In this document: piece after piece, positions 3,001 to 47,131 of the stretch | How the letters are laid out: each line of letters begins with the position of its first letter | Position numbering within the stretch: position 1 is the first letter of the stretch | Origin: Lama guanicoe | Lineage: Eukaryota | Reading direction: 5' to 3' | DNA length: 64,000 nt | NCBI GenBank assembly: GCA_013239625.1 | Contig: MU055753.1 | Span: 2,596,702-2,660,701 of the forward strand | Program-made: the position numbers and the translations under genes | The notes under the pieces: model-generated | Database searches by the model: none | Told to the model about the DNA's origin: nothing | The model's input: the letters and a program-made list of their open reading frames with translations, nothing else

Positions 3001-6000
3001 TTATTTAAATGGAGGAGGTACTAGGGATTGAACCCAGGACCTCATGCTTGCTGAGCACGTGCTCTATCTCTGAGCTCTACCCTCCCCCTGAATTTACTTC
3101 TTTTTTAAGGCAGAATAATATTCCACTGTATGGATGGACCATGTTTTTGTTGGAGGTGGGGTGGGTAACTTGATTGACTGATTGATTGATTTTAATGGAG
3201 TTACTGGGGATTGAACCCAGGACCTCCATGCATGCTGAACATGCGCTCTACCACCAAGTTCTACCTTTCCCCCGTGTCTATTTTAATACCTATATTTCCA
3301 TTCATTTTAACTCTTCTAGTTTTTAAGCAACCAAAAATTACTGAGATACATGAACTGTCCCAGAACACAAGCTTCTCAAAGTAGTAGTAATTAGCAGTGA
3401 CCACCCCAGTACCTCTAGTCCCAAAGCCCAAAGTCCCAGACCAAACTCTGGATTCATTTTTGACTCTCTTTTAGTATTTCCTCACTTGAGATTCTGTCAG
3501 CTACTTTGCAGGTCCAGAATCTGCCTCTTCTCTCCATCTGCCCAAACATCCTCCTCTACCTGGACCATTCTGCTCATCCTCTGCAGCTCATCCCCACTCT
3601 GTGCCAGAGAGAGCCTGTTCCCTGCAGCAGGCCCCGTCACTCCACCCCTGGGGCCGTGGTATCTACTGCCACTTAATAGGTCAGCCCCAAATGCTCACTT
3701 GCAGCAAGGTGGCTGGCAGGCTGTCATGGGAGTTCCCAGCTCCTCCCTCTCTGGACCTCACTGCTAGGTTGCTTGAACATCCTCAAAACATGGCACTCCA
3801 CCAACCACACCTGACCGGCCAGCCCCACCACCTCCCCTGCTGTCTCCTGCCACCCTCGCTCCTGTCTTCACCTTTCACGTCTGCTGCTCCCTCTGCCTTG
3901 AGTTCCCCACCAAGACCAGAGCTGCGTGTTCTGCTTCCTCCAGGTCCTCCTTCAGATGCTGCTGGTCAGCGTCTGCCTTCCTGTCTCATGTAAATACCGT
4001 CAGGCACGAGCCTCTGTCTCCGTGTCCTCCCTGCTTCACTCGTGTGACTGTCTGCTTCCCCCACCAGCATGTGCACACGATATGTGCACAGACTGTGTTC
4101 TTGTCACTCAGTGCTGGGAATGGTGCCTGGCATTCAGTTAGGGGATAACGTACTTGTTGGTGACTAAAGGGATCAATGAATATTAATCCAGTAACACACA
4201 TAGTCAGCTGTCATGCAGCTCAGAGTCTAACATAAAGTTCTGCAAATTCTATGCTAGATCCACTATATGATCCTGATATGCCATGTTCATATCCATGTGT
4301 GAAATACAAACACACATACAGAAAAGGGACAGAAAAAAACTAACACTGCTGTTCCCTGCATGACGGAAATGCTGTTAGATGTCTGTTCTCGGTTGTATTC
4401 CTACTTTCTACAGTTTATGCTACTTTTCATCAGAAAAGTCCATTTCATGAAGAAAATGTGTCCCATGACTTCCTACCTTCAGAAAACACAGTGCCTTTTA
4501 TTCTCTAGGAGACGCATAAAACCAGAAACATTTGCTGCAGCTCAGTGGCAGGCACGTGCCAGAGCTCGGGGTGGGGGGGCCCACCCTCTTCTTCCTCTGA
4601 CACATTCAGGGCACAGCTGTGCAGAACCACTGCTCAGTGTGTGCACTTTTTTCCTAGAAGTGCCTCTCATGGTTTTGCTTCCCTCTTTTCTTTCTCTTCC
4701 ATACTTTCTCCCGCCCCTGTAGCTCCCTGCCTCCCGTCTGTAGTGGCCCTGGCTCTGGGCAGGTCAGGGTGGCTCCATGGGGCAGGTAGCTCTCTGGGGT
4801 CTGTGGCACTTGTTGGAAGGTTGAGAACCCAGTCATGATTCACTAGCATGAAGAGCAGGCAGGGAGACGAGGCCGGTGGCTGGATGGTCATGCTCTGAGG
4901 TGATGGCTGCTGGGGTGGCGGCAGGATGGGGTGCAACAAGTCCCAGAGGTGCGAGGCCAGGACTTGGTTGCGGACTAAGCTGGAAGTGAGGGGGAGATGG
5001 ACAGAAGCTGATGGCATTTCCTGGCCTGAGGAGCAGGGTGGATGTGGGCCCCTCCCCAGAGTGACCAGTGGTGTTCTGAGCCCCAGCACCATGCGCCATG
5101 TCCACTCTGGTTTGGGGCACTGTCCTTTCTCTCCATGGGCAAGAGGAAAGGAGACACACAGAGCCAGAGGCTCAAGGGACCTTTGGTGCCGAGGAAGTGG
5201 GTTGGCTGCATCCCGGGGCAGTGTACAGGCTGCCAGGTGAGCATGGGCTGGTCCCTCTTCCTGTGCCTCAGGTCCAGCACTCCCGGGGACAGGACTCAGA
5301 CGCTGATGCTGCAGAAACTGGAGGAGAGAGGGTCGCCTAGTCCGGGCCCGACGTGGGAGCAGCTCCAGTCAGCCAAGCTTTCCAGGACAGGTGTGCTCCC
5401 GCATCCCCCAGATGACCCTCCTTGTCCCTTCTTCTGGGCTGCCAGTAACCTGTCTGTGTCTGCCTCCCCAGGGCTGGTGGAGGGTCTGCGGAAGCGACTG
5501 CTGCCTGCTTGGTGTGCTCCCCTGGCTCATGGGCTCAGCCTGCTCCTGGTGGCCATGGCCGTGGGGGTGGCGGGGTGGGTGGGTGCCAGCTTCCCACCCA
5601 GTGTGTCCGTCATGTGGCTCCTCTCAAGCAGCTCCAGCTTCCTGGCCTCATTCCTCTGCTGGGAACCGCTCAAGGTAAGTGGGATGCGAGGGGCCACACT
5701 GCTGGCTGCCGGCACCCGAGGGCCCTTCTGATGCCACTCCTGGCCCAGATCCTGCTGGAAGCCCTATACTTCTCACTGGTGGCCAAGCGGCTGCACCCCG
5801 ATGAGGATGACACCCTGGTGGAGAGCCCGGCTGTGACGCCTGTGAGCGAGCGTGTGCCCCGAGTGCGGCCACCCCATGGCTTTGCGCTCTTCCTGGCAAA
5901 GGAGGAAGCCCGGAAGGTCAAGAGGCTGCATGGGATGCTAAGGGTGAGCTCGGGCCCTCCCTCTCTGGCCTGCTGGCCAGGGCAGCATCTTCCAGGAGGT

Positions 6001-9000: not shown

Positions 9001-9703
9001 TGCGGTGGCGGTACCATGCTCTGCGGGGGGAGCTCTACCGCCCAGCCTGGGAGCCGCAGGACTACGAGATGGTGGAACTGTTCCTGCGCAGGCTGCGCCT
9101 CTGGATGGGCTTCAGCAAGGTTAAGGAGGTGGGTACGGCCCAGTGGGGGGGAGAGGGACGCACCCTGGGCGCAGCTGAGCCCAGGGCGCAGCCGGACTGA
9201 CCGAGCCCCTGTGCCGCCCCCAGTTTCGCCACAAAGTCCGCTTTGAAGGGATGGAGCCATTACCCTCCCGCTCATCTAGGGGCTCCAAGTCTTCTCCGGA
9301 CATGCCCCCACCCAGTGGGGGCTCCGACGCTTCTCGCCCCTCCACCTCCTCCAGCCAGCTGGACGGGCTGAGCGTGAACATGGGCCTGGGCCGGCCAGGG
9401 CCCCGAGGGGAGACAGAGCCTGAGCCCTCCCGCCTCCAAGCTGTGTTTGAGGCCTTGCTGGCCCAGTTCGACCGACTCAACCAGGCCACGGAGGACGTCT
9501 ATCAGCTGGAACGCCGGCTGCAGAGCCTGCGTGGCCTCAGGAACAGTGGGCCCCCAGCTTCCACTCCCACCTTCCCCCTCCCAGGCCTGCGGCCAGCCCT
9601 GCCCAGCCGCCTGGCCCGGGCCAGTCGAGGGGTTGGCCTGACTACAGGCCCCAGCAGGGTGTCCCTGCGGGCCAAGAATAAGATCCACCCCAGCAGCACT
9701 TAG
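1..9703 (+). CDS. PKD1: Polycystin-1, 3' part (exons 27-46, 5'-truncated by window; about 1136 aa: end of PLAT domain, TM2-TM11, TOP domain, C-terminal tail)
   Basis: 20 exons with GT-AG ends join in frame (3411 nt from position 3). Recognisable peptides: VWKIRVWHDNKG, ELQRGFFDKHIWLSIWDRPPRSRFTR, WEPQDYEMVELFLRRLRLWMG, QFDRLNQATEDVYQLE, AKNKIHPSST-stop. Confidence 0.99.
164..307 (+). CDS. PKD1: PKD1 exon 28
   Basis: LSPAWFLQHVIVRDLQ...EKEVLAA; 144 nt; CAG| and |GTAAGG. Confidence 0.96.
387..597 (+). CDS. PKD1: PKD1 exon 29
   Basis: DATLRRFRRLLVAELQRGFFDKH...GDAAY; 211 nt. Confidence 0.96.
695..821 (+). CDS. PKD1: PKD1 exon 30
   Basis: LGPVSNLIPLSFDTVAVGLVSSVVVYPVYLAILFLFRMSRSK; 127 nt. Confidence 0.96.
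940..1440 (+). mobile_element. Degraded LINE-1 ORF2 fragment in PKD1 intron 30
   Basis: A-rich block; ORF 1210-1509 (PILHKL...PKADKDVTRKRNCRLPSLRDLQAKILNKI) resembles L1 ORF2p PILLKL...[28 protein letters not shown]; boundaries approximate. Confidence 0.85.
1455..1645 (-). mobile_element. hAT-Charlie DNA transposon remnant (MER33/MER3-like)
   Basis: Characteristic AGCCACATTTCA.GTGCTC...GTGGCTAGTGG...TGGACAG segments with an AT-rich core. Confidence 0.7.
1720..1836 (+). CDS. PKD1: PKD1 exon 31
   Basis: VAGGLSPTPVGPQALDVDSCLDSSVLDSS...; 117 nt. Confidence 0.95.
1920..1969 (+). CDS. PKD1: PKD1 exon 32
   Basis: AFAGQVKQDLFLEDSK(S); 50 nt; phase fits both neighbours. Confidence 0.93.
2190..2374 (+). 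CDS. PKD1: PKD1 exon 33
   Basis: LVCWPSSEGTLSWPDLLSDPS...YFSAS; 185 nt. Confidence 0.96.
2449..2542 (+). CDS. PKD1: PKD1 exon 34
   Basis: DEDLIRQILAEGVSSLVPTQDT...; 94 nt; |GTGAGT. Confidence 0.95.
2976..3088 (-). mobile_element. tRNA-derived SINE (Vic-1-like)
   Basis: Reverse complement of GGGGAGGGTA.AGCTCAG...GGTTCAATCCC with AAACCTAATTAC tail; Pol III A and B boxes. Confidence 0.85.
3145..3273 (-). mobile_element. tRNA-derived SINE (Vic-1-like), second copy
   Basis: GGGGATTGAACCCAGGACCTC...GCATGCT...CTCTACCAC; (TGAT)n tail. Confidence 0.85.
3490..4190 (+). mobile_element. Ancient LINE-2 3' fragments
   Basis: CCAGAATCTGCCTCTTCTCTCCATC and terminal GTGCCTGGCA...TTGTTG..AATGAA resemble the L2 3' end; approximate. 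Confidence 0.5.
5272..5390 (+). CDS. PKD1: PKD1 exon 35
   Basis: SSTPGDRTQTLMLQKLEE...KLSRT(G); 119 nt. Confidence 0.95.
5472..5674 (+). CDS. PKD1: PKD1 exon 36
   Basis: LVEGLRKRLLPAWC...WEPLK; 203 nt; |GTAAGT. Confidence 0.96.
5749..5943 (+). CDS. PKD1: PKD1 exon 37
   Basis: ILLEALYFSLVAKRLHPDEDDTLVESP...HGMLR; 195 nt. Confidence 0.96.
6353..6492 (+). CDS. PKD1: PKD1 exon 38
   Basis: GLLVYMFFLLVTLLANYGD...AFLAIT(R); 140 nt. Confidence 0.96.
6892..7004 (+). CDS. PKD1: PKD1 exon 39
   Basis: SDEFWPWMSHVLLPYIHGNQSRPELGPPRLRQVRLQE; 113 nt. Confidence 0.96.
7261..7408 (+). CDS. PKD1: PKD1 exon 40
   Basis: ALCPEPPGSGALTCSAASGSFSTGDYAIGW...WAYSAPDLL(G); 148 nt. Confidence 0.94.
7541..7666 (+). 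CDS. PKD1: PKD1 exon 41
   Basis: VWYWGSCAVYDSGGYVQELG...LQLHNWIDN(R); 126 nt. Confidence 0.96.
7968..8142 (+). CDS. PKD1: PKD1 exon 42
   Basis: SRAVFVELTRYSPAVGLH...LPLLTS; 175 nt. Confidence 0.96.
8246..8536 (+). CDS. PKD1: PKD1 exon 43
   Basis: VSLLLFAVYF...AASLLFLLLVK; 291 nt. Confidence 0.96.
8613..8747 (+). CDS. PKD1: PKD1 exon 44
   Basis: SAQQLRFVRQWSVFGKTLCRALPEL...AQLAVL; 135 nt. Confidence 0.96.
8823..9128 (+). CDS. PKD1: PKD1 exon 45
   Basis: LVSSCVDSL...RRLRLWMGFSKVKE; 306 nt. Confidence 0.96.
9129..9223 (+). ncRNA. MIR1225: Mirtron miR-1225 ortholog (entire PKD1 intron 45)
   Basis: 5' end GTGGGTACGGCCCAGTGGGGGG (9129-9150) matches miR-1225-5p as I recall it. 3' end CGAGCCCCTGTGCCGCCCCCAG (9202-9223) matches the 3p arm except at position 1. 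The two ends are complementary. Confidence 0.88.
9224..9703 (+). CDS. PKD1: PKD1 exon 46 coding part (C-terminal tail with coiled coil)
   Basis: FRHKVRFEGMEPLPSRSSR...KIHPSST-TAG. Confidence 0.97.
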   Translation, partial: FRHKVRFEGMEPLPSRSSRGSKSSPDMPPPSGGSDASRPSTSSSQLDGLSVNMGLGRPGPRGETEPEPSRLQAVFEALLAQFDRLNQATEDVYQLERRLQSLRGLRNSGPPASTPTFPLPGLRPALPSRLARASRGVGLTTGPSRVSLRAKNKIHPSST

Positions 9704-9789: not shown

Positions 9790-9970
9790 AGTATTATCTT
9801 CTGCCACCCTCCAGGTTTCGGGCCAGGCAGAACAGCTGCACACAGGTCCCCCAGAGAATGGACAGCACTTGTCTGTCTCTCTGTGGGCTTCAGCACTTTA
9901 AAGAGGCCATGTGGCCAGCCAGGACCCAGGGTCCCCTCCTCAGTTCCCTGTGGGAGGACACAGCAGTATT
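9790..9970 (+). promoter_or_regulatory. Two miR-200b/c/429 seed matches (AGTATTA 9790-9796; CAGTATT 9964-9970)
   Basis: 7mer-A1 and 7mer-m8 matches; miR-200 regulation of PKD1 is reported in mammals. Confidence 0.6.
9893..9900 (+). promoter_or_regulatory. miR-17 family 8mer site (GCACTTTA) in PKD1 3'UTR
   Basis: Exact 8mer complement of the miR-17/20/93/106 seed; PKD1 repression through a 3'UTR miR-17 motif is established. Confidence 0.8.
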
Positions 9971-10763
9971 GGACTGAGTGCCCAGCCTCTGAGATGCTAA
10001 TTTATTTCCCAAGTCCTCAGGTACAGCGGGCTGTGCCCGGCCCCACCTCCTGGGCAGACATCTATCTCCCCTTGCTAAGGATCCAGGCTGCGGGGAGGGA
10101 ATCTGCACTTCCTGTTATCCTCCCCCTAAATTATTACCTCCTGCCCCCTTGCTGAGTGCACTCACCTCCAGCCACCGCTGTGTGTCTATTGTCAGTAATT
10201 TATGTGGGGTTAAAATGTATATATTTTTGTACGTCGCTTTTTTTCAGTAGGGTCAAGGGGCTTGGTGGCTGAACCAACCTGCACCCACTGTCACCCACAG
10301 CGAGGGGGAGCTGGGACTGCAGAGCTGGCCTTCTTCCCCAGACACCTGCCTTTATGGCTGGGGAAGCAACAGCTGCTTCTTGGAACCAAGTCTGGCCTTG
10401 GGCAGATGGGGCTGTTGGATGGGGCACCATCACCACTGTGGCCTTATTTTCCTGCCCTGCCCAAGGTGGGGCAGGGAGAAGGAAGGCCTAGGGCCTGCTG
10501 GCGTCAGGTCTAGGGGAGGGACAGGGCCCGTGCATGGCACAGGACCCCAGGGTAGGTAAGGGGAAAGACCTCTCCCCGGGAGCTGGCTCTCGGGCCAGGA
10601 GAGGTGAGTGTGACAGTGCATGTGTGAAAACCCGCATGGTGGCACGTGAGGCTTTCCTGAGGGTGAGGCCCCACTAGCAGCCAGATAGGCCACTGCCCTT
10701 GTCCAGTGGGCATGGCCAAAGCTACAGCCTTAATCCCACCCTGTCCCCTGATAGACGAAGTCA

Positions 10764-10769
10764 AATAAA
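10764..10769 (+). terminator. PKD1: PKD1 polyadenylation signal AATAAA (proximal, probably main)
   Basis: AATAAA about 1.06 kb after the stop codon, followed by GT-rich CGTCTGTCTGTCT. Confidence 0.8.
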
Positions 10770-10834
10770 TGAGTTGGCTGACTTGACCGCTCCCGTCTGT
10801 CTGTCTAAGCGCACAGGCCTGGGAACAATGGCAC

Positions 10835-10840
10835 TTTATT
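10835..10840 (-). terminator. TSC2: TSC2 polyadenylation signal (AATAAA on minus)
   Basis: TTTATT on plus about 140 nt beyond the TSC2 stop; 65 bp from the PKD1 signal, matching the known tail-to-tail arrangement. Confidence 0.85.
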
Positions 10841-10978
10841 TGCGCAAATAAATACCTCCCAGCGCCTCCTGGGAGCAGAGAGGGACCAGCAGCACGGCTG
10901 CTCAGGTGACAGGAGCCTGGGCACATACTCAGCATCTGGGAGACCCCAGTGGGGCTGGGCAGCCGCTCACGCACAGCC

Positions 10979-47131
<36,153 letters not shown>

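Follow-up and report, generated by a model that had tools for sequence, protein, structure and literature searches.

The tail-to-tail junction of PKD1 and TSC2 in Lama guanicoe carries a perfect 18-bp palindrome (10835-10852) that is most likely an incidental by-product of the probable TSC2 poly(A) signal and not a two-gene switch. All positions are those of the window, i.e., the whole 64-kb stretch of DNA that was analyzed. According to the account we favor, which we hold to be probable though well short of secure, PKD1 ends mainly at a proximal signal, TSC2 uses the left arm of the palindrome, and the right arm is the U-rich stretch upstream of the TSC2 signal, completing the palindrome by chance. 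PKD1 transcripts would be cut mainly 10-30 nt after 10769, using a GU-type run at 10795-10806, so that most PKD1 mRNA would never contain the palindrome or the second miR-17 site that overlaps it. TSC2 would use the left arm as its poly(A) signal, with the right arm providing the U-rich stretch just upstream that poly(A) sites normally have. This stretch happens to be complementary to the TSC2 signal and therefore would read AATAAA on the PKD1 strand, where it could be no more than a weak back-up, and just four more letters would then be required for the miR-17 8mer. The palindrome may have arisen by point changes or by perfecting through a template switch. In the pre-mRNA of TSC2, a GC-rich outer stem would hold it together, with the AAUAAA base-paired; the resulting penalty of ~2.8 kcal/mol is probably tolerated. 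The most likely effect, if any, would be a predicted RNA hairpin that partly hides TSC2's own signal. Sequence, gene identities, background frequencies and downstream base composition were established directly, and signal usage is what we infer.

The identity of the locus is clear. The last coding exon of PKD1, a stop-to-stop open frame on the forward strand (9179-9703; stop TAG 9701-9703), matches human polycystin-1 (E 3e-69), and the last coding exon region of TSC2 on the reverse strand (10979-11221; stop 10981-10979) matches tuberin (E 7e-20). With convergent last exons and closely spaced signals, this is the PKD1/TSC2 tail-to-tail junction. The palindrome and the signals sit between both stop codons, which bears out the layout proposed in an earlier, sequence-only reading of this DNA. 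The main PKD1 hexamer and the main TSC2 hexamer lie 65 nt apart, and the spacing at the human and mouse junctions is presumably ~60 nt. To our knowledge, the human junction has neither the palindrome nor a facing hexamer. The tail-to-tail orientation itself is already known from human and mouse (PMC2781793, PMC12574933). The present junction shares gene pair and orientation with the published ones, but differs in that a second AATAAA opposes the TSC2 signal within a perfect palindrome. In the literature searched, no description of this junction's poly(A) signals was found, which is a weak negative.

The junction stretch is single-copy in the whole source genome, and neither a tandem repeat nor an Rfam match was found at the junction; an origin from a repeat or mobile element was accordingly rejected. 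Orthologous mammalian junctions were also sought in public contigs, with two matches among metagenome contigs and none among genome or viral contigs. Both metagenome matches represent one and the same non-mammalian-looking TSC2 end, which has no DNA match to the window. A tuberin-like C-terminus ending in DDFTEFV is encoded on these contigs (L002:153-179 and L003:1501-1527) without DNA similarity to the window, and this terminal motif seems to be retained well beyond mammals.

The palindrome is real in the sense that 10835-10852 equals its own reverse complement, as the sequence-only reading had stated, and no other perfect palindrome in the window is as long (the runner-up measures 16 bp). 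The claimed hexamers are likewise present: AATAAA occurs on the forward strand at 10764 and, 83 nt further on, at 10847 (10847-10852), while the TTTATT at 10835 gives AATAAA on the reverse strand (10840-10835). These features are not separate surprises, however. Any palindrome through TTTATT must carry an AATAAA on the opposite strand, and the miR-17 8mer ends in the same TTTA with which TTTATT begins, so that these two features are not independent; the probability of GCAC given TTTA is ~0.006 for the miR-17 family alone, other families not counted. Palindrome, paired signals and 8mer are thus a single coincidence, not three. When the 64-kb window was subjected to block-wise dinucleotide shuffling, 113 of 300 shuffles contained a palindrome of at least 18 bp, so that finding one in a window of this size does not exceed chance. 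At one given poly(A) signal, the chance of such a palindrome is 2e-5 to 2e-4 under independent letters, which corresponds to 0.3-4 cases expected per 20,000 poly(A) signals. A palindrome on a real signal is therefore rare for a named gene, yet expected somewhere in a wide scan.

Genome-wide counts were also obtained for the motif. TTTATTT-N4-AAATAAA occurs at 689 genome sites versus 717 for the mirror control, with four perfect palindromes among the first 50 sites listed. When the spacer is bounded by C/G, 61 sites are found against 60 for the mirror control; six of the first 50 listed are perfect, compared with ~6 expected at 1 in 8. The motif is therefore not enriched genome-wide. Within the window, a facing pair TTTATT-GG-AATAAA lies at 21970-21983, far from the junction, and such pairs recur by chance. 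All three junction hexamers are embedded in the 8-mer CAAATAAA (10762-10769, 10835-10842 and 10845-10852), of which the window holds only two further copies.

The sequences around the two PKD1-strand hexamers differ markedly. The proximal AATAAA (10764-10769, forward strand) is likely the main PKD1 poly(A) signal, with cleavage expected at ~10780-10800 on the basis of published distances after the hexamer (PMC3647115). It is followed by a GTCT-repeat run (10795-10806), a candidate GU-type downstream element; at +16..+35 the U fraction is 0.30 and seven GU/UC-type tetramers occur, a count based on an ad hoc tetramer list picked after the sequence was seen. Mammalian poly(A) sites require two core elements, the hexamer and a U/GU-rich sequence downstream of it (PMC3647115, PMC5546720). 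The distal hexamer (10847-10852, forward strand), which on TSC2 RNA forms the U-rich stretch just upstream of the signal, is a canonical AAUAAA but lacks such a downstream element within the ~40 nt that follow the cleavage zone. By simple counts rather than a trained model, U amounts to 0.05-0.15 downstream: 0.05 at +16..+35 and 0.075 at +21..+60, the latter being the window's 7th percentile, and no U-rich pentamer follows out to +100. Among auxiliary features, an upstream U-rich stretch and a CA at +24 are present and UGUA is absent. The absence of upstream UGUA extends to all three junction signals, including the 100 nt before the proximal hexamer. With almost no U downstream of the distal AATAAA versus a GU-type run at the proximal one, substantial use of the distal hexamer by PKD1 is unlikely, although minor use is possible. 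The proposal that the right arm works as a PKD1 signal thus finds no support, given its U-poor downstream sequence and the proximal signal ahead of it, which does have a GU-type run. The geometry attached to that proposal does hold: with cleavage distances of 10-30 nt, distal use would give a PKD1/TSC2 overlap of ~40-80 nt. By geometry, the mature 3' ends may overlap only with distal or unusually late cleavage.

On the reverse strand, the AATAAA at 10835-10840 is the first canonical hexamer after the TSC2 stop (138 nt) and likely the main TSC2 poly(A) signal. Its own near-downstream element is weak (U 0.12 at +21..+60), so a poor downstream element does not exclude use. The U-rich stretch downstream of this signal is the complement of the proximal PKD1 hexamer, ~65 nt on. 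Indeed, when either gene's main signal is read on the opposite strand, it gives the other gene its nearest downstream U-rich stretch, ~65 nt from that gene's signal, and the main signals of PKD1 and TSC2 may double as each other's downstream elements. A further reverse-strand AATAAA (10001-10006) lies inside the PKD1 3' UTR, ~830 nt past the main TSC2 signal, and is predicted to be open (0.07 kcal/mol); if used, it would create a long antisense overlap ending ~100 nt before miR-17 site 1 is reached. We also considered whether the right arm could free the proximal PKD1 signal by sequestering the complementary left arm, and rejected this idea, as the difference is only 0.63 versus 0.87 kcal/mol.

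Two miR-17-family 8mers, both GCACTTTA, occur on the forward strand at 9893 and 10831. Site 1 (9893-9900) belongs to the constitutive PKD1 3' UTR and is likely the orthologue of the published conserved miR-17 site. Site 2 (10831-10838), which the sequence-only reading had pointed out, takes its last four letters from the TSC2 signal read on the forward strand. The source genome contains eight mir-17-family hairpins, and five of the six listed carry the seed that matches the 8mer, in agreement with that reading. Taken in isolation, site 2 pairs as well as site 1, the energies with miR-17-family RNAs being -18 to -20 and -16 to -19 kcal/mol, respectively. The predicted cost of opening is 5.1 kcal/mol for site 2 versus 2.5 kcal/mol for site 1, so site 2 does not lie in an accessible context by this prediction. 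Moreover, PKD1 mRNA would include site 2 only when the distal signal is used, and two or more copies of GCACTTTA are found in 24 of 100 window shuffles. In mouse and in human cells, two studies describe control of PKD1 dosage via a single conserved miR-17 seed match (PMC9376183, PMC12818905). The published element has the same 8mer as 9893-9900 (PMC9376183, PMC12818905). Unlike it, site 2 lies past the likely main cleavage site, shares half of its letters with the TSC2 signal and is located in a predicted stem.

The palindrome had further been proposed to fold as a 7-bp stem in either RNA. As a hairpin on its own, this stem does not hold up: the isolated 18-mer folds at just -0.3 kcal/mol, and an outer stem, absent from the sequence-only reading, is required. 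With it, the palindrome becomes the apex of an imperfect 53-nt predicted hairpin (10815-10867), whose outer arms lie at 10815-10824 (+11..+20 after the AAUAAA on TSC2 RNA, the usual cleavage zone) and 10857-10867. Its predicted energy is -21.3 kcal/mol for the TSC2 strand, compared with -17.2 kcal/mol for the PKD1 strand. For the inner pairs, the predicted P is 0.8-0.9 across four folding windows on the TSC2 strand, against 0.1-0.6 across two on the PKD1 strand. Folding is hence well predicted for TSC2 RNA, while the claim was overstated for PKD1 RNA, where the outcome depends on the folding window. The RNA that matters for the predicted hairpin would be that of TSC2, which always contains the element. 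On this strand, the stem-loop is predicted to occlude the AAUAAA: opening the hexamer costs 2.8 kcal/mol, or 0.12 kcal/mol if the partner arm is kept from pairing, and the hexamer is the fourth most occluded of 34 scored in the window (35 were found, and one was dropped owing to a nearby N). Neither its stability nor its occlusion exceeds what base composition gives, however. Equal occlusion is reached by nine of 150 flank shuffles; a 63-nt window chosen around the hairpin has a z of -1.6, with 13 of 200 shuffles folding as well on the TSC2 strand, and 91-nt windows around it give z +0.2 and -0.4. During transcription, the TSC2 hexamer is predicted to remain ~70% unpaired until the outer arm, 15-20 nt further, has been made.

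Several other readings of the palindrome have to be weighed against that of an incidental by-product. It is unlikely, though not far-fetched, that PKD1 genuinely uses the right arm as a minor or fail-safe site, which would be ordinary tandem alternative polyadenylation with no special coupling. Read-through from 10764 would be caught there, and the resulting PKD1 isoform would be slightly extended, include the second miR-17 site and overlap TSC2 mRNA by 40-80 nt. The canonical hexamer, the upstream U-rich stretch and the CA at +24 are consistent with such a site, as is the low predicted cost of opening the distal hexamer (0.8-1.1 kcal/mol). Distal canonical sites serve as a last option against read-through (PMC3647115), 8% of RefSeq 3' UTRs overlap opposite-strand genes (PMC3371698), and a site found in primates alone, 75 bp away from a conserved site, illustrates that lineage-specific canonical hexamers can be used (PMC3371698). 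The junction resembles these tandem 3' UTR systems with lineage-specific hexamers (PMC3371698, PMC3647115) in having two same-strand canonical hexamers 83 nt apart and in that the PKD1 extension would add a miRNA site. It is unlike them in that the candidate distal hexamer is followed by no U/GU-rich element and falls within the 3' UTR of the partner gene. This lack of U- or GU-rich sequence out to +100 tells against a fail-safe site, as do the proximal signal that precedes it with a candidate downstream element and the 5.1 kcal/mol needed to open the added miR-17 site. A functional TSC2 poly(A) hairpin is a distinctly less probable reading. Here, the stem-loop at 10815-10867 would pair the AAUAAA and the cleavage zone and tune 3' processing in the manner of HIV-1, such that cleavage may shift deeper into the junction or some transcripts may run to the AATAAA at 10006-10001. 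The high inner-pair probabilities in all four TSC2-strand folding windows, the -21.3 kcal/mol, the rank among the 34 hexamers and the dependence of occlusion on the partner arm (2.8 to 0.12 kcal/mol) argue for it; the 13/200 and 9/150 shuffles that match its folding and its occlusion, and the delayed pairing, which leaves CPSF time to bind, argue against it. The HIV-1 polyA hairpin likewise pairs the AAUAAA in a stem-loop, predicted in our case, and its total energy is in a similar range: -17.5 kcal/mol for the wild type and -24.7 kcal/mol for an inhibitory form, computed with a different folding program (PMC2645353). The viral hairpin has been probed and mutationally tested and answers a clear need, namely repression at the 5' end and use at the 3' end (PMC2645353), whereas that of TSC2 is a prediction, does not stand out beyond shuffles and belongs to a signal without an evident need for repression.

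The remaining readings are more ambitious or more skeptical. A lineage-specific 53-nt hairpin acting as a two-way 3'-end rheostat, which would mask the TSC2 AAUAAA and cleavage zone as a cellular counterpart of the HIV polyA hairpin while offering PKD1 a second signal, is a long shot. PKD1 read-through RNA would then gain the miR-17 site and the antisense overlap, and one short element would tune the dosage of two mTOR-linked cyst/tumor genes. The model drawn from the sequence-only reading, in which a two-way element under selection would link the 3' processing of PKD1 and TSC2 and switch PKD1 between one-site and two-site miR-17 isoforms, is in our view very improbable. Every part is present where it was said to be, and the governing of PKD1 dosage by a single miR-17 seed match (PMC9376183, PMC12818905) would favor the idea. 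Nonetheless, the parts are interdependent, the context of the distal hexamer is poor and such palindromes show no genome-wide excess. Since the two RNAs fold separately, the palindrome by itself would yield no coupling, and the human junction, so far as we are aware, has no facing hexamer. An assembly artefact in the form of a short inverted misjoin can be practically dismissed. Template switching during library preparation can create short perfect palindromes, but all 105 sampled words of 10250-11230 are present in three of six DNA-scale runs from two studies, one of which may be the window's own source, and the other three runs contain 0.96-0.97 of them, making an artefact unlikely. Runs of a second organism contain 0.35-0.41 of the words, a figure that does not address the palindrome itself. 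The by-product reading also has points against it: the prior chance at a named signal is as low as computed above, and this palindrome falls in a dosage-sensitive gene pair; the distal hexamer has an upstream U-rich stretch and a CA at +24, and the proximal one is without UGUA within 100 nt; lineage-specific canonical hexamers are used elsewhere (PMC3371698); and site 2 pairs with the miR-17 family as well as site 1 does.

Overall, the element is a real but probably incidental variant of the known PKD1/TSC2 junction. If so, it is a useful warning that at convergent gene ends the same few letters can supply an antisense AATAAA, a U-rich stretch ahead of the signal, a hairpin and some of a miRNA seed. 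Should the hairpin or the distal signal prove functional, it would offer a natural cellular case of structure-tuned access to a poly(A) signal and would imply a species difference in the miR-17 control of PKD1 dosage. Targeting miR-17 with drugs is a strategy under pursuit against polycystic kidney disease (PMC9376183, PMC12818905). Elsewhere in the window, a mir-1225 hairpin scores above the Rfam cut-off in the last PKD1 intron (9129-9223, forward strand); this microRNA is already known from human and mouse (PMC12574933). Finally, weak tRNA matches lie at 3013-3084 (reverse strand), 33674-33745 (forward strand) and 40097-40168 (forward strand), with AATAAA hexamers close behind them on their own strand; these three are likely copies of tRNA-derived SINEs rather than tRNA genes.
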